The notes below the pieces were generated by a model. It saw only the letters and a program-made list of their open reading frames with translations. It made no database searches and was not told the origin of the DNA. Of a DNA stretch of 14,302 bases, positions 2,693-8,937 are shown in pieces; the stretch's first letter is position 1, and each line of letters opens with the position of its first letter. A program made the position numbers and the translations under genes. The DNA is taken from positions 1 to 14,302 of IMG/VR virus record IMGVR_UViG_2778261167_000006; one strand, 5' to 3'. This DNA is from a virus. Lineage: Duplodnaviria > Heunggongvirae > Uroviricota > Caudoviricetes.

Positions 2693-3523
2693 TTAGTTCA
2701 CATCATCACCAAAACTTGTCACATTCTGAAAAGCAATATCGGCCTTATGCTCTTCCTGGTGACAAATGTCAACCAGAGAATCAAGAAACGGCTTCCAATT
2801 ACGTGTCCATGTCCTGACATGTAGCTCGGGTATCCGCTTCAGTACAACTTTATATACTGTGGTAGACGGTATCGTGGAAAATCCATTTCCGCTACAACGT
2901 TCGCAGATTTTAAACACTGGCACACCACGCTCGCTTGTGGCTTTGCGGTCCAGTACCTCTCCCTTTCCACCACAACGACACCTGGCACTTATCACTCCCT
3001 TCCCTTTACATACATCGCAAACGACTGGTACAACTTCTGTTACCTCTGTCCATTTCTCCCAGTCTGACGGTCGAACAGCACGGGAGCGACTGGCCCAATA
3101 TGGTGCTTTACCCCATGGGTATGAAACCTTACGAATGACCTGCTTACGGGGTGTTAGTCCGGTACCACTGCAACTATGGCATGTTACGCTGGTGGCCGCC
3201 GATCGGGAATACTCAGCAAAAGCAAACTGCGCCAGTACCAGCATACACCAGCCAAATTCACCACCAGCTGCTTTACGCACATTCTTCGGTGCAATTTCCA
3301 TCGCGTGACGCGCCAGCGCCTGGACTGCCATCTGCTCATCAGTCTTGCTGATACCTGCCTTCCCGAAGAAGGCCACCAGACCAAACCGCTCACGATTGCT
3401 GGTGGTACCAATAGCCGCCATAACATCGGTGCCTGTAAGACGTTCCGGAGAGGTTCCTTTCACATCGTCGCCGATATACATTCCCTGAGGACTGAAGTAT
3501 TTTAGCGATGCCTCAAGCTTCAT
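2693..3523 (-). CDS. Zinc-finger protein with four CxxCxGxG repeats (DnaJ cysteine-rich-domain type); last gene of the replication operon
   Basis: 276-aa ORF with CHSCSGTG, CDVCKGKG, CRCGGKG and CERCSGNG. GGGGAG lies 8 nt upstream of the ATG; the ATG overlaps the upstream gene's stop (TAATG). Confidence 0.75.
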   Translation of the reverse strand: MKLEASLKYFSPQGMYIGDDVKGTSPERLTGTDVMAAIGTTSNRERFGLVAFFGKAGISKTDEQMAVQALARHAMEIAPKNVRKAAGGEFGWCMLVLAQFAFAEYSRSAATSVTCHSCSGTGLTPRKQVIRKVSYPWGKAPYWASRSRAVRPSDWEKWTEVTEVVPVVCDVCKGKGVISARCRCGGKGEVLDRKATSERGVPVFKICERCSGNGFSTIPSTTVYKVVLKRIPELHVRTWTRNWKPFLDSLVDICHQEEHKADIAFQNVTSFGDDVN

Positions 3524-4380
3524 TATTCACACTCCCCAACCAGATTGAGAATGACCGCTGCACCGTCGTCTTCCATGCATTCACCCTTACCACTTGCCAG
3601 AAACCAGCGGCACACCTCCACGGCTTCAGCGCGTGTCACCGGTTTGATAGTTGCCAGCAATTTTTCAAGGTAGCGCTCCCGGTCATATACTGATTCGTGA
3701 TGCTCAGAGTAACCAAACTCATCGCCCTGTTCTTTAGTTGCAGTGTGGCGAACACTGTAGAGCCAGTCCCAGTAAACGAACTCGCGAACAACATCAGACA
3801 GCGTATAAGGCTCAGGCAGCACATCGCGATATCCATCAACAAATGCCCGACGCTGTTCATCAATTTCGTTCATGCGGCTGCCGCCAATGCTTCCGGCTTT
3901 TTTCTCTGCCGCAGTCCAGCCCCAGAGATGATCGTTGATAAATTTCTTGGAAGACCTGATGACCCGCTCTGCTTCCACATCTTCGAGCGCTGCTTCATAG
4001 CTACCAAACGTAGCCCTGACTGATGCCGCTTTTTTGATGTTCTCCCGGGCGTTCCTGATAACCTGCGCAGGGTTATCCATGCCGATGATGCCGAACGCAA
4101 CCTGGAAAGGTTCGTAACCATTCGCCAGCAGATAACGCGAATAGCGTTCCTGAGCCTCTTTTGGGGAAATTTTAATTTTCACCAGCGCAGCCTCAGCAGC
4201 ATCCAGATGTGCGGGTTCGTTCAGACGGATAACCTCCAGCACCCAAAGATAAGCATCAGTCTGCTTATGCCCGGTGATTCTCCGTTGCTCTGGCAGGGGC
4301 TTGATGTTTGTGAGGGCGGAGCTGTACGCTGCCGTCGGGATGGTGAATAGTGCTTTATGTTCGTTATTATCAGTACGCAT
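3523..4380 (-). CDS. Hypothetical phage protein (285 aa), coupled between primase and the zinc-finger protein
   Basis: Long ORF with TAATG start/stop overlaps at both ends (4378-4382 and 3521-3525), placing it in the same operon. No recognisable motif. Confidence 0.65.
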   Translation of the reverse strand: MRTDNNEHKALFTIPTAAYSSALTNIKPLPEQRRITGHKQTDAYLWVLEVIRLNEPAHLDAAEAALVKIKISPKEAQERYSRYLLANGYEPFQVAFGIIGMDNPAQVIRNARENIKKAASVRATFGSYEAALEDVEAERVIRSSKKFINDHLWGWTAAEKKAGSIGGSRMNEIDEQRRAFVDGYRDVLPEPYTLSDVVREFVYWDWLYSVRHTATKEQGDEFGYSEHHESVYDRERYLEKLLATIKPVTRAEAVEVCRWFLASGKGECMEDDGAAVILNLVGECE

Positions 4381-5348
4381 TACGCAACCGCCTTTTTCTT
4401 ATGGAAAACCAGCTCTCGAACCTGATCACCGTTCATGAGCATATTGTTGAAATCATCGTGATCCGGCCAGTACACGCTCACGCGCTGCAGGTCATTCTTT
4501 GCCATCAGATTGGCATGAGCACATTCGCAAGCCGCAGCCAGCCCGGTGGCGCTGTTCTCGTCACGGTCGGCAAAAATAATCAGGTGCAGAACACCAGCTG
4601 GTACGCGGAACTTTTTCATAAAGCCGCTGTTAATGGTTGCCCAGGTGTTCACGTTATAAATCTGGTGCGCTGACAGCGCTGTTTCGATGCCTTCGGCGAT
4701 ACCCAGAGTGCTGGCGACAGGAAACATGCGGATAGCTACAGAACGAGCGTGATCCAAATAGTTATCTTCCTGCAGGGATTTGAGGCGCTTTGCACTGCTA
4801 CCGATATCTGCTTTTTTATCACCATCAAGCAGAGTCTGGTGCAGATAGCACAGCTCCCCTTTATCGTCCGTAGCAAGTGAATAAAGAGACTGGAACACAC
4901 TCCCGTTGTGTCTCTGCCTGGCATTGAACCGGATCGCCTCAGCAGGAAGACTGAATATTCCACGAGAATTAAGATACGCTGCGCCGGATGTACCACGCAG
5001 TGCCTCCAGTTTTGAAAACTTGCTCAATACCCGTTTGCGTAAGCTGGTGGCGCTGCTGGTTACCGGGATTTTAACCCGTTGGTAATCATTACCGATCAGG
5101 CGGTCTATTTCGGTACAAATCTCGTTAAATGGCTTCGCCTGTGTCAGGGTGACAAGTTTCATACCATCGCCACTACCACATACACAGATCCACGTTCCTG
5201 CACCGTCGCGGTCATCAATTCGGAACTTGCCACGTGCACCGCATACCGGGCATTCACCCTTGAAGTGATTTTTTCCGGTTATCGGCGGCAGACCGAAGTG
5301 CTCTAATATTTCAGGCCAGCGGCCTTTCGCTGCATCTGCTGTTTTCAT
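4380..5348 (-). CDS. DNA primase, TOPRIM type with N-terminal zinc-binding motif
   Basis: 322-aa ORF. N-terminal CPVCG...CVCG zinc-ribbon-like motif; IAEGIETALS (conserved TOPRIM Glu) and IIFADRDENSATGLAAA (DxD motif). Start lies 2 nt after the helicase stop. Confidence 0.85.
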   Translation of the reverse strand: MKTADAAKGRWPEILEHFGLPPITGKNHFKGECPVCGARGKFRIDDRDGAGTWICVCGSGDGMKLVTLTQAKPFNEICTEIDRLIGNDYQRVKIPVTSSATSLRKRVLSKFSKLEALRGTSGAAYLNSRGIFSLPAEAIRFNARQRHNGSVFQSLYSLATDDKGELCYLHQTLLDGDKKADIGSSAKRLKSLQEDNYLDHARSVAIRMFPVASTLGIAEGIETALSAHQIYNVNTWATINSGFMKKFRVPAGVLHLIIFADRDENSATGLAAACECAHANLMAKNDLQRVSVYWPDHDDFNNMLMNGDQVRELVFHKKKAVA

Positions 5349-5349
5349 C

Positions 5350-7008
5350 TTACTGACTCAGACTGTTTATATTTTTCTGGAGTTGGTGCTTTGCCTGCAT
5401 GATGCGCCAGGCCTCACTGCCTGCCGGCATCTCACGTCGTTCATCACGTTCCTGAGATAAATCAATCGTTGTTTGTGCGTTTTCAGTGACCTTCTGAACC
5501 CGCTGACGGCCTTTGGCAAACCGAATCAGCTTGTGTTTGATGTAGTTACTTACCTCTGGGCTTATTTCCATCGGGAAACTGCTCAACCCATCAGGCCATT
5601 CACCGAATTTCTCCCTGAAAGTGTGAGCACACCATCCATCACTGACTGGACGCCCCAGCGAAGCACGCTGGCGCTGATAAAATTTGATCTGACTCCACCA
5701 GGACTGTTTCTCTGCCTTCGTCGACTGATGCTGATTTTTACCCAGCTTATTAAGTTTGCGGCTAGTGTCAGTATCAACGTCTTCACCTCGCAGCGGCTTG
5801 TGTCCACATTTCGGGCAAACATAGACGCCAGCTGGCTTCATGTAGTGGCATTGAGGGCATTCATGTGGCAGTTTTTCGGCCCGTTCCTCAACTGCGCGGC
5901 GCGCGCTTTCCTCCATACCGTCAGACTTGCCGGGAAGATCGTCGTACTCGATTGAATCCGGATAACCCAGACGGTGCACGGTGCCGCTATGATCGAAGAT
6001 GAGGCAGGACTCTTTACCCGGTGCGGTGCGCAGCCCACGCCCGAGTGCCTGCAACCAGCGAATTTCGCTTTTTGTTGGCCTGGCGTAGATGATGCAACGA
6101 ACGTCACTATCGAAGCCGGCCACCAGCACGCCCACACTAACGATGATTTTCGTTGCACCAGTTTCAAAGCGGTGAATGATGGTCTGGCGCTCATCTACCG
6201 GAGTGTCTGCGGTCATTACCTCAGCGTTAACACCTGCGAGGTTAAACTGGATTGTCAGGTAATTGGCGTGGGCTACGTTGACGCAGAAAGCGATGGTAGG
6301 TAGATCCCGACCATTCTCCAGCCAGTTCTGTACAATGTCGCCCACCAGCGTAGATCCGCACATGATTTCAGCTAGCTGCGTTTCGTTGTAATCCCGGCCG
6401 TACTCAAGCGAAGATGTGGTTTTAACACCTTTCAGATCCGGCTTAGTTGGCGCGTAAAATTCGTATTTACTCAGATCGCCACGCTGGATTAACTCGCCGA
6501 TTGTGGTCGGCTTAATCAGTCGGTCATAGTATTTGCCCAGGAACGGGGAAAACGGAGTACCCGACAGGCCAATCACCTTTACGCCTTTGCCGCGCAGACG
6601 TTCGATATCCTTCAGGATGCGTTTTTTACGCAGGTGCGCTTCGTCGATAATCAGCAGATCGATATTTTCAGGAAAAACACGACGAATAAGCGTGTCAGCG
6701 CTGGCAATCTGAATTTTCCGGTCCGGATCGTAGTTCGGGTGATCCGCCCAGATATAACCGATTTCATCTCCAGGTAAACCATACTGCACGAACCGATTAG
6801 CCGTCTGACCAATCAGGATGGTGTACGGAACACAGAACAGGACGCGCATACCACGACTGACAAACCCGGCAACGATGAAGGCAGCCAAACCCGTTTTACC
6901 GCTACCGGTTGGCGAATACACCATGAAGGTGTCGTTTGCCTTCCAATCACGGCGCAACATGTTTAGCGCTCGTTCCTGTGCAAAATTCGGCGTGATCGTC
7001 AGCTCCAT
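5350..7008 (-). CDS. Superfamily-2 DEAD/DEAH-box helicase with C-terminal zinc ribbon (replicative helicase)
   Basis: 552-aa ORF. Walker A SPTGSGKT, motif II IDEAH, motif III-like SGTP, C-terminal CPQCH...CPKCG. GGGAG 7 nt upstream of the start. Confidence 0.9.
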   Translation of the reverse strand: MELTITPNFAQERALNMLRRDWKANDTFMVYSPTGSGKTGLAAFIVAGFVSRGMRVLFCVPYTILIGQTANRFVQYGLPGDEIGYIWADHPNYDPDRKIQIASADTLIRRVFPENIDLLIIDEAHLRKKRILKDIERLRGKGVKVIGLSGTPFSPFLGKYYDRLIKPTTIGELIQRGDLSKYEFYAPTKPDLKGVKTTSSLEYGRDYNETQLAEIMCGSTLVGDIVQNWLENGRDLPTIAFCVNVAHANYLTIQFNLAGVNAEVMTADTPVDERQTIIHRFETGATKIIVSVGVLVAGFDSDVRCIIYARPTKSEIRWLQALGRGLRTAPGKESCLIFDHSGTVHRLGYPDSIEYDDLPGKSDGMEESARRAVEERAEKLPHECPQCHYMKPAGVYVCPKCGHKPLRGEDVDTDTSRKLNKLGKNQHQSTKAEKQSWWSQIKFYQRQRASLGRPVSDGWCAHTFREKFGEWPDGLSSFPMEISPEVSNYIKHKLIRFAKGRQRVQKVTENAQTTIDLSQERDERREMPAGSEAWRIMQAKHQLQKNINSLSQ

Positions 7009-7270
7009 TGTGCTGCTCCCGTGCTGATGAGATAATAATTTCGTGATGTGGTTTTCATGGATTCCCCCTCACATGGCTGGTGGCCTCCCCAAAGGCTGCC
7101 AGCCCCCTTTCTGATTCAGCTCCTCTGAAAAATCACTCTTCCAAGAAGAACCCTTTTCGTTTCTCAAGGCCTGGGCGCTTTGTACTACCTTGCTGATACG
7201 AGCGTTTTTTTAAATTGCGCCCTTAAGACAGTGATCTACTTAACCAATGGATCTCTCCTGTTGGAAAAGA

Positions 7271-7324
7271 CCCTATTCCTGCCCCTACACCCAATCCCCC
7301 CCTACCCCCCTTTCCCTCTTCCCC
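7271..7324. repeat. Polypyrimidine, C-run-rich tract (G-run-rich on the minus strand) in a noncoding region
   Basis: Plus strand ccctattcctgcccctacacccaatccccccctacccccctttccctcttcccc; the minus strand carries consecutive G-runs. No ORF covers it. Confidence 0.6.
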
Positions 7325-7350
7325 ATAAAAACGTACTACTTACCTAGTAC
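7325..7350 (-). terminator. Weak terminator-like hairpin downstream of the cII-position gene
   Basis: Plus strand ataaaaac + GTACTA cttacc TAGTAC; on the minus strand this is a 6-bp AT-rich stem followed by GUUUUUAU. Confidence 0.3.
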
Positions 7351-7421
7351 ATATGAGGAATTGGGTCAGTTGGTTGCCAACCTGAACAGGCACCTTTAAG
7401 CCTGCTTCTGTTCGGGTGCCT

Positions 7422-7730
7422 TTAAACCCGAAACAATGAGGAGCGCGATAGCGATCCAGCCAGGGGCGGCTGAGTTGTATACCCCTGTAAAGCCCTGCCC
7501 TGATTTCTCACAAACAAGCGGAGCCTTGTGTTTGCTTCGTGCCTTGCTCTGTTCTCCTTGCGGAATGAAACAGGCTCAGCGTCAAAAGTGATTTCGTATA
7601 CCTCCGCATATTTCAGGGCGACCTTCCGTCTCAGTGACGGAGGCAGCCCCTGTAACTGCTGCTGAATCCACTCTTCGTCTGCCTGGCAGTACCTAGATGG
7701 CATCTCTGTCTGAACGTAATTCTGGGACAT
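7422..7730 (-). CDS. Hypothetical protein (102 aa) at the position lambda gives to cII; no similarity to lambda CII recognised
   Basis: ORF immediately downstream of the Cro-like gene on the same strand, overlapping it by 38 nt. Confidence 0.5.
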   Translation of the reverse strand: MSQNYVQTEMPSRYCQADEEWIQQQLQGLPPSLRRKVALKYAEVYEITFDAEPVSFRKENRARHEANTRLRLFVRNQGRALQGYTTQPPLAGSLSRSSLFRV

Positions 7731-7980
7731 ACAAGCCCTTCACCTCCGCCGTGCGCGCTAAGCTTGGATGTGGAAAAAGCTCTGGTAGGTCTGGACGAAA
7801 TTCATACGCTTGGATCTTTCCGTCGACAGCTGCAACCAATAACGGCACAAATTCTGGTGAAATCTTGTTCTTGCAGTTCAACCAATCGCAGACTGTTGAC
7901 TGGGCCTTTCCGCATCGCTTGGCTAAGGCTTGCTGACTTCCAAGAATCTCAATAGCTTTCTCTATGGCTTTATGTTTCAT
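7693..7980 (-). CDS. Cro-like HTH DNA-binding protein
   Basis: HTH segment GSQQALAKRCGKAQSTVCDWL. Start chosen at the Met preceded by AGGAGA 7 nt upstream (plus-strand tctcct at 7988-7993). Divergent from the CI-like gene. Confidence 0.75.
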   Translation of the reverse strand: MKHKAIEKAIEILGSQQALAKRCGKAQSTVCDWLNCKNKISPEFVPLLVAAVDGKIQAYEFRPDLPELFPHPSLARTAEVKGLYVPELRSDRDAI

Positions 7981-8002
7981 AATCGCATCTCCTATTGAGC
8001 GC

Positions 8003-8031
8003 ATAATAGCAACAGAAAAAGCGATATTCAA
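8003..8031 (-). promoter_or_regulatory. Putative sigma-70 promoter for the Cro-like gene (PR analog)
   Basis: Minus strand TTGAAT, 17-bp spacer, TATTAT (plus-strand attcaa at 8026-8031 and ataata at 8003-8008), about 15 nt upstream of the RBS. Confidence 0.5.
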
Positions 8032-8047
8032 CGTTAAACCTAGATCA

Positions 8048-8067
8048 TTTATCGGAAAGCCGATAAA
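8048..8067. promoter_or_regulatory. Perfect palindrome, candidate repressor/Cro operator
   Basis: TTTATCGG aaag CCGATAAA: perfect 8-bp inverted repeat with a 4-bp spacer, about 35-50 bp upstream of the CI-like start codon. Confidence 0.45.
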
Positions 8068-8099: not shown

Positions 8100-8792
8100 A
8101 TGACATTTTCAGAACGACTTGATTTAGCTATGCGCAACGCAAAATTTACGCAAGGTAGGCTGGCCAAAGAAGTGGGTATGGCTCAGTCCAGTGTTAATCA
8201 ACTACTTAATAAAGCCAACGGTTCCAGAAAAACAGTCGAAATAGCAAAAGTTTTGGGCGTTAACCCGGAATGGCTCGCATCGGGTGTTGGCCCAATGGAA
8301 ATCGTGACCTCTGCAGACTCACACCAAATACGTAACATTTCTGAAGATTGGGTTACTGATTCGTATGTCGTGGATGTTTTAGACATCAGATATAGTTGCG
8401 GACCTGGTAGTTATAACTCTGATTTTCCTGACATTGTCAGATCTATAGCGATAGAACCAGGATACGCATCAAGAGTTTTTGGCGGCAGACCAGCATCAGC
8501 AATCAAAGCAATAAACGCCCACGGCGACAGTATGAAAGGCACAATAGACCCTGAAGACTTGGTATTTGTAGATGTATCAGTTCGCACATTTAATGGTGAT
8601 GGTATATACGCCTTTACATACTCTGGAACATCGCACATCAAAAGACTTCAAAAAATCAAAGATACTCTAACGGTGATATCTGACAACCCAGCTTACAAGG
8701 ATTGGGCTATCGAACCGGAAGACTTCGAACAACTTCACATTGACGGAAAAGTAATTGTCAGTTGGCCCATGACACTACACCGTTTTGCATAA
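8100..8792 (+). CDS. CI-like repressor: N-terminal XRE-type HTH plus C-terminal S24 (LexA-like) autopeptidase domain
   Basis: 230-aa ORF. HTH segment QGRLAKEVGMAQSSVNQL; C-terminal GDSM (Ser nucleophile) and downstream HIKRL (Lys). AGGGGAGG RBS before the ATG. Confidence 0.9.
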   Translation: MTFSERLDLAMRNAKFTQGRLAKEVGMAQSSVNQLLNKANGSRKTVEIAKVLGVNPEWLASGVGPMEIVTSADSHQIRNISEDWVTDSYVVDVLDIRYSCGPGSYNSDFPDIVRSIAIEPGYASRVFGGRPASAIKAINAHGDSMKGTIDPEDLVFVDVSVRTFNGDGIYAFTYSGTSHIKRLQKIKDTLTVISDNPAYKDWAIEPEDFEQLHIDGKVIVSWPMTLHRFA

Positions 8793-8810
8793 GCAAAAAT
8801 CATTTAACCC

Positions 8811-8837
8811 GCCCACTCTTAAGTGGGCTTTTTTTTT
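8811..8837 (+). terminator. Rho-independent terminator after the repressor gene
   Basis: GCCCACT ctta AGTGGGC (7-bp stem) followed by T9. Confidence 0.8.
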
Positions 8838-8859
8838 GGAAAAAAAATCGATAAACCGA

Positions 8860-8888
8860 TTGACAGGTAAAATCGGCGAACCTATTAT
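8860..8888 (+). promoter_or_regulatory. Near-consensus sigma-70 promoter (PL-like or lysogenic-conversion promoter)
   Basis: TTGACA (8860-8865), 17-bp spacer, TATTAT (8883-8888). Inverted repeat ACCTAT (8880-8885) / ATAGGT (8895-8900) overlaps the -10 and the predicted start site. Confidence 0.6.
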
Positions 8889-8937
8889 CATGACATAGGT
8901 ATCGAACTCACCAAAGCAATTATAGAGGATGAGAAAA

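Follow-up and report, generated by a model that had tools for sequence, protein, structure and literature searches.

What keeps a noncoding interval conserved at the head of a phage helicase-primase operon? We analyzed a 14,302-nt stretch of temperate phage DNA (the window) in which such an interval, at 7009-7421, separates two minus-strand genes: (i) a 102-amino-acid gene of family phrog_852 (p852; 7422-7730), which lies upstream, and (ii) an SF2 helicase with ResIII and Helicase_C domains (5350-7008), which is followed by a Zn-ribbon/Toprim primase (4380-5348). An initial annotation had described 7028-7421 as a region without ORFs that carries an unusual C-run tract, and had offered a replication origin, a structured leader or a noncoding RNA (ncRNA) as its function. 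Our analysis indicates that the sequences flanking this tract look like host tryptophan-repressor sites, and like MetJ sites in sister phages, so these phages probably tie their DNA-replication genes to host amino-acid supply.

A conserved noncoding cassette between p852 and the helicase

Long ORFs are absent from 7009-7421, as had been stated for the region. One 19-codon ORF (6999-7058, minus strand; MKTTSRNYYLISTGAAQWS) precedes the helicase, with a strong Shine-Dalgarno sequence and a stop codon that overlaps the helicase ATG. Its frame and N-terminus are conserved in Fostie, YP3, ENT39118 and Fels-1, and it is missing from the Klebsiella type.

Within the interval, we delineate a control cassette of about 170 bp (7182-7350), in which a G-run core is bracketed by two dyads, P2 and P1. 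Identity of the cassette to relatives is 72-96%, compared with 46-61% at the third codon positions of their helicases. Judged by sequence comparison, the region is real, noncoding and under strong purifying selection. Its genetic context is constant: the G-run element lies between p852 and the SF2 helicase and primase in three families of Enterobacterales, the order of the module being p852, cassette, SF2 helicase, primase and (Q). The exact G-run motif was found in 25 species genomes, each time between p852 and the helicase, and the cassette is still linked to p852-helicase-primase at protein identities down to 38% and 64%. Hosts of the cassette family include Escherichia, Salmonella, Klebsiella, Citrobacter, Enterobacter, Cronobacter, Yersinia, Erwinia, Photorhabdus, Morganella and Providencia, and prophages of O121 STEC strains belong to it. 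The annotation had named absence or lack of conservation of the tract in syntenic relatives as the observation that would speak against a function; the tract is present and conserved in those relatives. Its broader interpretation, a functional conserved noncoding control region that contains an unusual tract and heads the helicase-primase operon, agrees with our results, but the specific anatomy that it assigned to the region does not. Sequence motif and keyword queries of the literature returned no earlier description of the cassette.

Where the surveyed loci reach far enough, they carry the p852 gene upstream of the cassette. The p852 family comprises 271 cluster representatives, shares the invariant motif RKENRARHEAN.RLR.FV...GRA.QGYT..PPLAG, and has no match in Pfam, NCBIfam or PDB; its AlphaFold model is a low-confidence arrangement of three helices (pLDDT 59). 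The closest solved relative of the helicase is RadD, with weak matches to UvsW, RecG, PriA and Hef. We found no O-like initiator in the replication module.

The edges of the cassette resemble host repressor operators

The left operator candidate, P1 (7333-7350; GTACTAGGTAAGTAGTAC), is an 18-bp dyad of the form GTACT-N8-AGTAC that resembles a Trp-repressor operator. The right operator candidate, P2 (7182-7199; GTATCAGCAAGGTAGTAC), is a weaker TrpR-like dyad, GTATC-N8-AGTAC, with one perfect AGTAC half-site. Both fit the TrpR half-site pattern of an 18-bp dyad, GNACT...AGTNC, with the spacing seen in trp, trpR and aroH. As a reference, we took all five E. coli K-12 operators from the MG1655 sequence and built a weight matrix from them; the genuine operators, each left out in turn, score 14.3-21.3 bits. 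P1 matches 16 of 18 consensus positions and scores 19.1 bits, more than all but one of the genuine operators. At 12.3 bits, the P2 of the window is weak and borderline (relatives' median, 14.0; maximum, 23.0). A scan of 149 unique related loci (1.2 Mb) for sites that reach 12 bits gave 133 within the P1 zone, 134 within the P2 zone and only 12 outside both. The spacing from P1 to P2 is 146-158 bp.

One of the dyads had been read differently. P1, together with the T-run of the adjacent spacer (7325-7332, minus strand; GTTTTTAT) that separates it from the G-run, accounts for a weak minus-strand terminator proposed at 7325-7350. That terminator does not hold: a terminator scan was silent there, the stem is AT-rich, its arms do not covary, and no more than 87 of 145 unique relatives have the T-run after P1. 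Folded as RNA, P1 and its flanks reach -15.2 kcal/mol with the U-run inside an internal loop, and P2 with its T-run has no stable fold on the plus strand (-9.2 kcal/mol, z = +1.3). Across relatives, positions 1-7 and 14-18 of P1 and P2, which contain the GTACT and AGTAC half-sites, are near-invariant around a variable centre, and deviations in the arms are one-sided rather than compensated (61 to 1 in P1 and 79 to 1 in P2). Because arm changes are uncompensated, the dyads vary like protein sites and not like hairpins, and we rejected RNA hairpins or terminators as their identity. CI/Cro operators were also rejected, since the phage's own immunity operators differ (TATCGG-N4-CCGATA); immunity genes vary among relatives, while P1 and P2 are unchanged.

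A sister lineage carries tandem MetJ met boxes at both of the positions occupied by P1 and P2. We calibrated the met-box threshold on the MG1655 metJ/metB and metF operators. Sister cassettes have two to seven tandem 8-mers near AGACGTCT; one locus (L024) has a perfect AGACGTCT box, and the boxes of another (L224) resemble the metB operator TTTAGATGTCCAGATG. The 163 unique G-run elements divide into 99 with TrpR-like sites on both sides, 41 with met boxes on both sides, and others that include hybrids, against a repressor-site background outside both zones of 11 and 17 in 1.19 Mb. In Erwinia typographi, for example, the left side consists of two TrpR-like sites in tandem and the right side of met boxes. 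By sequence, the two kinds of site are thus swapped as modules. In L024 and L036, the helicases are 94-98% identical to that of the window and the 102-amino-acid gene is near-identical, yet met boxes are present; the binding protein should therefore be neither p852 nor the helicase. We accordingly set aside p852 as a binding or TrpR-like protein, which also lacks Pfam, NCBIfam and PDB matches. In the literature, we found no description of two unrelated host repressors interchanged at one phage locus. In Fels-1 and in the L136 and L024 variants, the right operator precedes the next gene's Shine-Dalgarno sequence and ATG by 11-27 nt, a placement as expected for a promoter-proximal operator.

Proposed gating of the replication genes by TrpR or MetJ

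We lean toward a model in which TrpR with tryptophan (in the sister lineage, MetJ with SAM) gates the entry of RNA polymerase into helicase-primase-Q at both edges of the cassette. When tryptophan is plentiful, tryptophan-bound TrpR would occupy P1 and P2 and impede RNA polymerase on either side of the G-run core. It could do so in one of two ways: (a) by blocking access to weak A-rich promoters adjoining the operators, or (b) by road-blocking read-through from the early-right promoter. Transcription over the G-run into helicase-primase-Q would thus be coupled to amino-acid supply. In the sister lineage, SAM-bound MetJ would play the same role from tandem met boxes at the same two positions.

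Promoter searches bear on how this might work. A sigma-70 search of both strands in 25 representatives returned a single conserved match, a leftward candidate near the helicase start (7008-7036, plus strand; TTGTGC-N17-GATAAT with an extended -10, TGa) that is directed away from the helicase start codon. It has the best regional sigma-70 score (9.4) in all E. coli-type representatives, and Fels-1 retains its hexamers (TTGTCC-N17-TGcGATAAT) despite a diverged spacer. Neither strand has a conserved sigma-70 consensus beside P1 or P2, which counts against the model; sigma-54, sigma-32 and sigma-E consensus sequences, checked by eye, are not conserved either. By eye, all types show an A-rich element (A7, AAAAAT or TATAAA) at 5-16 nt upstream of the right operator; it does not score as a consensus promoter. 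In the window, it is an A-run (7205-7211, minus strand) 5 nt upstream of P2, possibly a weak -10-like element, which could serve a rightward promoter with its start inside P2.

Further considerations temper the model, among them the weak score of P2 in the window. To our knowledge, neither TrpR nor MetJ has an established road-blocking activity. In addition, the usual logic of phages opposes repression of replication genes when nutrients are plentiful, and the sign of the effect could therefore be reversed; the operators could instead gate a leftward, lysogeny-promoting transcript. The model also leaves unexplained the strong conservation of the G-run core and of the CTTTTCCAACAG block next to it. 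In the TrpR-type core, this block belongs to an invariant stretch (7233-7269, minus strand) made of CTTTTCCAACAG (7258-7269) followed by CATTGGTTAAGTAGATC (7233-7249). Its columns are unchanged among 25 representatives, and its motif occurs in at least 119 viral contigs, upstream of the helicase in each representative checked. The stretch contains two GATC sites (7250-7253 and 7233-7236) and has no sigma-70 consensus fit.

The G-run core and the origin question

Read on the opposite strand, the C-run tract is a G-run element (7271-7324; minus strand, GGGGAAGAGGGAAAGGGGGGTAGGGGGGGATTGGGTGTAGGGGCAGGAATAGGG), and that strand is the sense strand of the early-right operon. The tract had been described as a 54-nt polypyrimidine tract. 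It is C-rich (C34 T13 A6 G1) and its complement carries G-runs, but it is not strictly polypyrimidine: 47 of its 54 bases are C or T, with no uninterrupted stretch longer than 20 nt (7305-7324). The suggested G-quadruplex (G4) scoring supports a predicted G4 capacity. A canonical motif lies at 7282-7310 on the minus strand, with at least four runs of at least three G and loops of 1-7 nt. Nowhere else in the window is the G4Hunter score as extreme as its peak here, -2.56. By comparison, 41 of 500 Markov simulations hold any canonical G4 motif. In 1.7 Mb of related loci, 143 of the 155 G4 motifs are the G-run element itself. The G6 runs are retained while loops differ across relatives (TA, TAA, TT, TTT, AAA), G6-TAA-G6 is present in 93 of about 128 unique elements, and the core of L125 reads G4-A-G4-AAA-G4-A-G4. 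The G-tract is only weak in the Fels-1 and L024 variants (GGAGGGGAGGGGGAGGAG; G5-AAA-G5), and the distant relative L211 has no G-run. We rejected a coding role for the G-run, where short ORFs are present with an unconserved frame and start codon. As a separate observation, the second G6 run is the break point of many independent assemblies.

A replication origin was among the functions first suggested. The region does not have the features of a classical origin, which would include iterons, an AT-rich unwinding element or an enrichment of DnaA boxes. Its direct repeats are limited to two hairpins, the P1/P2 pair and an internal repeat of the C-tract; the longest AT stretch is about 14 bp; and DnaA-box matches number 39 against 32 ± 5.7 expected, none with one mismatch or fewer within the P1-P2 cassette. 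A transcription-dependent origin would be of another kind. Rightward transcription would lay a G-rich RNA on the C-rich template, the displaced G-strand would fold into a quadruplex, and the RadD/UvsW-like helicase and the primase would start replication from this structure, which the repressor sites would license or limit. This explanation is compatible with the repressor model and would account for the core. The G-runs are on the non-template strand of the early operon in every locus, and the pattern of conserved runs and varying loops in a canonical G4 motif, as in L125, speaks in its favor. It would also suit a module without an O-like initiator, iterons or AT-rich unwinding element, a helicase from an SF2 clade whose substrates are branched structures or R-loops, the many independent assemblies broken inside the second G6 run, and the persistence of the linkage to p852-helicase-primase at low protein identity. 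The weak G-tracts of Fels-1 and L024 and the loss of the G-run in L211 count against it, and a specific protein-binding site would explain the sequence-level conservation equally well. We regard such an origin as the foremost alternative but, on balance, doubtful.

The same elements can be combined into a fuller and more speculative proposal, which we consider unlikely: a nutrient-licensed, transcription-dependent origin without a described counterpart, in which G6-TAA-G6 would support an R-loop and a displaced-strand quadruplex, the RadD/UvsW-like helicase and primase would build the fork, and TrpR-tryptophan or MetJ-SAM at the edges would decide whether this happens. If so, phage replication, and hence the lysis-lysogeny outcome, would read host amino-acid and methyl-donor status directly.

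RNA hairpins and remaining explanations

Downstream of the 102-amino-acid gene, the stem-loops noted at 7383-7421 proved to be genuine covarying RNA hairpins. H1 (7411-7432) and H2 (7385-7406) together span 7385-7432 on the minus strand and share the conserved loop UUAAAGGY, and the TAA stop codon of the 102-amino-acid gene sits in the loop of H1. Among 58 distinct hairpins of relatives, 88.4% of cells are paired, compared with 71% after shuffling (a level reached by 0 of 500 shuffles); double changes number 96 versus 33, and slid controls give 26-47%. With 35 G.U pairs against 7 A.C mismatches, the structure can be assigned to the minus strand of the window. A further hairpin, H0 (7440-7457, minus strand), overlaps the variable 3' end of the 102-amino-acid gene, and its stems covary between types as judged by eye (CAGGAACG/CGTTCCTG versus CGGATC/GATCCG). 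The only structures that RNAalifold finds in 25 representatives are the UUAAAGGY hairpins and the GTAC ends of P1; the G-run core has no covarying structure. The proposed structured leader can accordingly be retained for the hairpins at 7385-7457 but not for the core. The ncRNA proposal found no backing, as the window has no Rfam match at gathering score and, at E<=10, gives only chance-level eukaryotic matches. Long-range pairing of the G-run with the pyrimidine stretch ahead of P1 was also tried as a candidate helix and is unconserved in relatives.

These hairpins lend some plausibility to a core that acts as RNA. The G-run in the early-right transcript could form an RNA quadruplex or purine tract that affects stability, processing or Rho access; alternatively, its complement could be a C-rich rut site that stops leftward antisense transcripts. 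The hairpins are adjacent RNA structures on the same strand, the plus-strand tract has an ideal rut composition (63% C, 2% G), the leftward promoter candidate lies downstream of the tract, and the first part of the G-run is able to pair with the pyrimidine-rich stretch that precedes P1. Against this stand the lack of a covarying core structure in RNAalifold and of an Rfam match, and the fact that a rut site or purine tract needs no such near-exact sequence conservation across families. An RNA-level element has, in our estimation, little chance of being the main explanation.

We consider it very improbable that the operators are decoys, which would titrate TrpR or MetJ during genome amplification and so de-repress host tryptophan or methionine synthesis for phage protein production. 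Two operators per genome that could each take one to four dimers, interchangeable TrpR and MetJ sites, and no clear local promoter would suit a decoy, but the fixed positions around the G-run and the placement of the right operator immediately ahead of the next gene would not be needed for it.

Scarcely tenable is the idea that two similar 11-bp palindromes flanking the tract, GGCTGCCAGCC (7094-7104) and GGTTGCCAACC (7372-7382), are initiator-binding sites: both exist there and are alike, but such palindromes are common (25 with 5-bp arms in the window versus 15.8 ± 4.1 expected), they are retained in about half of relatives (78 and 77 of 145, none in Klebsiella or MetJ types), and one is a mere arm of a larger hairpin. 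As a functional flanking pair they do not stand. Of 145 relatives of the TrpR type, the 77 that have GGTTGCCAACC all belong to the E. coli subtype; this palindrome is missing from the Klebsiella, Fels-1 and MetJ types, and is judged incidental. GGCTGCCAGCC is the 3' arm of a 30-nt hairpin (7075-7104; minus strand, GGCTGG-CA-GCCT-TTGGGG-AGGC-CA-CCAGCC) of about -23 kcal/mol on the plus strand, where it is followed by CCCUUUCUGAUU; this hairpin is retained in the E. coli and Fels-1 types only.

Discussion

The model that we favor, in which host repressors gate the replication genes, would have several implications. If TrpR and MetJ truly bind the cassette, a widespread temperate phage family has wired host amino-acid repressors into replication and late gene entry. 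This would be a direct modular link from host metabolism to phage development, of which we found no report for lambdoid phages in the searchable literature. The core would add a bacterial G4 motif that occurs naturally, is under strong selection and has a known genetic setting, a rarity among enterobacteria. It would also offer a concrete candidate origin for lambdoid replication modules of the helicase-primase type.

The idea that a mobile element may co-opt a host amino-acid repressor at a non-metabolic site has a precedent in ArgR/PepA at plasmid cer sites. The role of ArgR/PepA at cer is an architectural one in site-specific recombination, however, and no recombination site is evident at the cassette.

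In map position, the interval corresponds to the lambda cII-O interval, with its oop RNA, promoter pO and tR1/nutR, as both run from the cII-position gene to the replication genes. The promoter candidate at 7008-7036 and the hairpin at 7075-7104 would together yield an antisense RNA of about 70 nt, reminiscent of oop, and conserved-loop RNA hairpins after the upstream gene recall boxB. Unlike in lambda, there is no N-like gene or second nut-like site in the pL region; the intervals share no sequence similarity, and the hairpin loop is 8 nt (UUAAAGGY) and is present in one to three copies.

Origins that use R-loops or G-rich primers include ColE1 RNA II, mitochondrial CSB II, and T4 oriF/oriG with UvsW. 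These have non-template G-runs downstream of a promoter, as the cassette may have, and an SF2 helicase and a primase are encoded adjacent to the cassette; the G6-TAA-G6 of the cassette resembles the G-run pair of CSB II. The cassette differs in that its tract is flanked by metabolic-repressor sites and is weak in some variants, and its role as an origin is putative.

The closest comparisons for the edges of the cassette are the host operators themselves. The tandem 8-mers near AGACGTCT in sister cassettes are like those of the MetJ operators of metJ/metB and metF, but they stand at positions that are held by TrpR sites in the lineage of the window. Compared with the E. coli Trp-repressor operators (trpEDCBA, aroH, trpR, mtr and aroL), the cassette sites belong to the replication region of a prophage and not to an amino-acid gene, are paired about 150 bp apart around a G-run core with no overlapping consensus promoter, and are putative as binding sites. 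They nevertheless share with these operators the 18-bp dyad, the GNACT half-sites and the variable centre, and P2 resembles the weak site at aroL.

The G-run core and its conservation

The window is the immunity and replication region of a lambdoid prophage, with the early-right operon on its minus strand. A CI-like repressor gene (8100-8792) lies on the plus strand, and the operon comprises a YdaS/Cro-like gene (7693-8031), p852 (a 102-aa phrog_852 protein; 7422-7730), an SF2 helicase (5350-7008), a Zn-ribbon/Toprim primase (4380-5348), phrog_6204 (3523-4380), and a Q-like antiterminator (2693-3523). As the initial annotation had it, no long ORF covers the region between p852 and the helicase (7009-7421). 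This stretch is 99.8% identical to E. coli KC-Dl-1 and is matched in 75 of 5,426 complete E. coli genomes; it is unannotated in every match shown.

We compared 80 helicase-anchored and at least 119 motif-anchored viral loci. The tract proved to be conserved in syntenic relatives, with a single architecture in approximately 40 sequence clusters, in every case bounded by p852 and the helicase-primase pair. Phages Fostie, YP3, ENT39118, and Fels-1 share the region; in Klebsiella phages, conservation is limited to the G-run core (7271-7324, minus strand). The cassette (7182-7350), delimited by two dyads that we call P1 and P2, is 72-96% identical to the window, compared with 46-61% at helicase third-codon positions in the same relatives, which indicates strong purifying selection on non-coding DNA. 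Among species-representative genomes, 25 (Enterobacteriaceae, Erwiniaceae, and Morganellaceae) contain the exact G-run pattern (GGGGAAGAGGG, 3-16 nt, GGGGGGTAAGGGGGG), and every contig that is long enough has a p852 homologue (38-74% identity) on one side of it and the helicase (64-93%) with its primase on the other. No other sequence of the replication module is conserved as deeply as the core. The p852 family itself (at least 271 clusters; no matches in Pfam, NCBIfam, or PDB) has the invariant motif RKENRARHEAN.RLR.FV and lies directly upstream of the helicase-primase pair in most contexts examined, distant members included, with locus L212 as an exception.

The core had been described as a 54-nt polypyrimidine tract with G-runs on its complement. 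It is C-rich (C34 T13 A6 G1) and the G-runs are real, but it is not strictly polypyrimidine, its longest pure run being 20 nt. G-quadruplex (G4) prediction finds a canonical motif at 7282-7310 on the complement of the C-run tract, and the G4Hunter peak (-2.56) is the maximum of the window; 41 of 500 first-order Markov simulations hold any such motif. This element accounts for 143 of the 155 G4 motifs in 1.7 Mb of related loci. The loops separating the G-runs vary (TA, TAA, TT, TTT, AAA), but the runs themselves persist: G6-TAA-G6 is found in 93 of approximately 128 unique elements, and one core (L125) reads G4-A-G4-AAA-G4-A-G4.

Fels-1-type cores (L003 at ~4575-4600, L117, L136, L024) have a small hairpin, AGUGC-GAA-GCACU, in place of part of the G-run; the L024 version, AGCGC-GAA-GCGCU, shows a compensatory double change. 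G-run length ranges from 5 to 9 among close relatives, and many independent assemblies stop in or just past the second G6 run (L016, L040, L049, L058, L067, L070, L079, L124, L163, L182, L298, and others), which points to sequencing or assembly failure or to heterogeneity in tract length. A conserved block, TAGATCTC(T/G)NT (7233-7253), retains one or two GATC (Dam) sites in cores with either type of flanking site, ~35-45 nt upstream of the right operator.

TrpR-like and MetJ-like sites flank the core

The G-run is flanked by two 18-bp dyads, P1 on the left (7333-7350; GTACTAGGTAAGTAGTAC) and P2 on the right (7182-7199; GTATCAGCAAGGTAGTAC). We built a weight matrix from the five TrpR operators known in E. 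coli K-12, taken from the MG1655 sequence (trp, GAACTAGTTAACTAGTAC; aroH, GTACTAGAGAACTAGTGC; trpR, GTACTCTTTAGCGAGTAC; mtr, GTACTCGTGTACTGGTAC; and aroL, GTACTAGTTTGATGGTAT). P1 scores 19.1 bits and P2 12.3 bits, compared with 14.3-21.3 bits for the genuine operators (leave-one-out). When 149 unique related loci (1.2 Mb) are scanned with a minimum score of 12 bits, the P1 zone yields 133 sites and the P2 zone 134, with 12 elsewhere. The half-sites are near-invariant and the center is free, and deviations from GTACTAG affect one arm rather than both (61 to 1 for P1, 79 to 1 for P2), a pattern of protein-site rather than hairpin evolution. What had been read as a weak terminator is the P1 dyad with its T-run. 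P1 and P2 are probably TrpR operators. In one locus (L136), a third TrpR-like site lies 11 nt ahead of the helicase ATG.

We also considered P1 and P2 as CI/Cro operators and rejected this, as the phage's own operators differ (TATCGG-N4-CCGATA); dyads of that type lie between cI and cro (8050-8067) and upstream of the first pL gene (8840-8890), and a strong intrinsic terminator (AGCCCACTTAAGAGTGGGCTTTTTTTTT-like) lies 3' of cI at ~8805-8838. Immunity genes vary among relatives; P1 and P2 are constant.

A sister lineage (Providencia phage PSTCR3, Morganella, Photorhabdus, Atlantibacter, and the E. coli-like L024 and L036) keeps the G-run core without TrpR-like sites. At the P1 and P2 positions it has tandem 8-mers near the met-box consensus AGACGTCT, which in L024 read AGACGTCT, ATATGTCT, GGATGTGT on the left and AGATGTGC, GGACGCCT, AGACGTCC, AGATGTAA on the right. 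With a met-box threshold calibrated on the MG1655 metJ/metB and metF operators (12 of 16 positions matching), we classified the left/right flanks of 163 unique G-run elements: 99 were TrpR/TrpR, 41 MetJ/MetJ, 16 TrpR/none, two none/TrpR, two none/none, and one each MetJ/TrpR, TrpR/MetJ, and none/MetJ. Beyond both zones, 1.19 Mb held 11 TrpR-like and 17 MetJ-like matches. Erwinia typographi combines two tandem TrpR-like sites on the left with met boxes on the right. Binding by host factors is the parsimonious reading of these sequences because two unrelated host-repressor consensus sequences occupy the same two positions, and especially because neighboring phage proteins are nearly identical across both types (the L024 and L036 helicases are 94-98% identical to that of the window).

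RNA structures and a small ORF around the cassette

The 3' end of p852 is overlapped or immediately followed by one to three RNA hairpins in which the 8-nt loop, UUAAAGGY, is conserved and the stems covary freely. The window has two on the minus strand, H1 (7411-7432), with the p852 TAA stop inside its loop, and H2 (7385-7406). Over 58 distinct hairpins, the paired fraction of cells is 88.4%, compared with 71% in shuffles (none of 500 reaches 88.4%); double changes number 96 versus 33, and slid controls give 26-47%. The excess of G.U pairs over A.C mismatches (35 versus 7) places the structure on the minus strand, i.e., in the early-right transcript. With its invariant Arg-rich motif, p852 is a candidate ligand. 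We found no second UUAAAGGY hairpin in the pL region. Another minus-strand hairpin (7440-7457) overlaps variable C-terminal codons of p852, and by eye its stems differ compensatorily by type (CAGGAACG/CGTTCCTG versus CGGATC/GATCCG), which suggests that RNA structure constrains the coding sequence.

Features of the 3' part (7009-7140) belong to the E. coli and Fels-1 subtypes. A strong candidate for a leftward promoter (7008-7036, plus strand; TTGTGC-N17-(TGa)GATAAT) abuts the helicase start codon; its hexamers are kept in Fels-1 and its spacer has diverged. Together with a stable plus-strand hairpin (7075-7104) followed by CCCUUUCUGAUU (7075-7116 with the U-rich tail), it would yield an oop-like antisense RNA of ~70 nt, opposite a 19-codon ORF, MKTTSRNYYLISTGAAQWS (6999-7058, minus strand), and its ribosome-binding site. 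The E. coli and Fels-1 types conserve this ORF, which the Klebsiella type lacks; its strong Shine-Dalgarno sequence, and a stop that overlaps the helicase ATG, suggest translational coupling or a leader peptide. Two 11-bp palindromes noted in the initial annotation are present at the coordinates given there, but not as a special flanking pair: the window has 25 such palindromes (15.8 ± 4.1 expected), and GGCTGCCAGCC is merely the 3' arm of the 30-nt hairpin at 7075-7104. Of 145 unique relatives, 77 retain one and 78 the other, all with the element's E. coli subtype.

Additional genes insert between the right operator and the helicase (L003 4096-4464; L125, L136, L024); they encode a 122-aa STM0899-like protein or HNH-like proteins of 206-218 aa. 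A conserved TTCTTCYTGGAAGAG motif (7136-7150) may be a remnant of the STM0899-like gene, whose 5' part it resembles.

Discussion

Every functional claim that we make for the cassette is computational. We propose that a repressor bound at the operators would control whether RNA polymerase enters the G-run and the helicase-primase-Q operon, a mechanism that, taken as a whole, we rate slightly above even. We found no conserved sigma-70 consensus promoter beside P1 or P2 on either strand. In all types, as seen by eye, the right operator is preceded at a distance of 5-16 nt by an A-rich, -10-like run (A7, AAAAAT, or TATAAA); the operator is 11-27 nt from the Shine-Dalgarno/ATG of the next gene in Fels-1 (STM0899), L136, and L024. 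Such a layout suits a weak rightward promoter that could be repressed from an operator at about +1; alternatively, read-through from the early-right promoter would be road-blocked. In every type, 2-9 nt separate the end of the left operator from the first G-run, so the target of this operator would involve the core. DNA binding by TrpR and MetJ requires a co-repressor (tryptophan and SAM, respectively), and the logic, bound in plenty and free in starvation, would thus be preserved through the swap.

For the core itself, the most interesting candidate function is a transcription-dependent R-loop/G4 origin. The module lacks an O/P-type initiator, its helicase most resembles RadD, with weak similarity to UvsW, RecG, PriA, and Hef, the G-runs are on the non-template strand of the early operon in all cases, and the depth of conservation peaks at the core. 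Against this, the G-tracts are weak in the Fels-1 and L024 variants, and the distant relative L211 has no G-run. The core may act at the RNA level, for example by forming a quadruplex in RNA or through an antisense-strand rut site, but such a role would not need such exact sequence conservation, and we saw no covariation in the core. Of the features of a classical origin, iterons, an AT-rich unwinding element, and DnaA-box enrichment are all absent.

Motif and keyword searches of the full-text literature returned no paper that describes this G-run, or TrpR or MetJ sites, in the replication regions of lambdoid or other phages. The components are of known kinds; the composite cassette and its modular repressor swap appear to be new.
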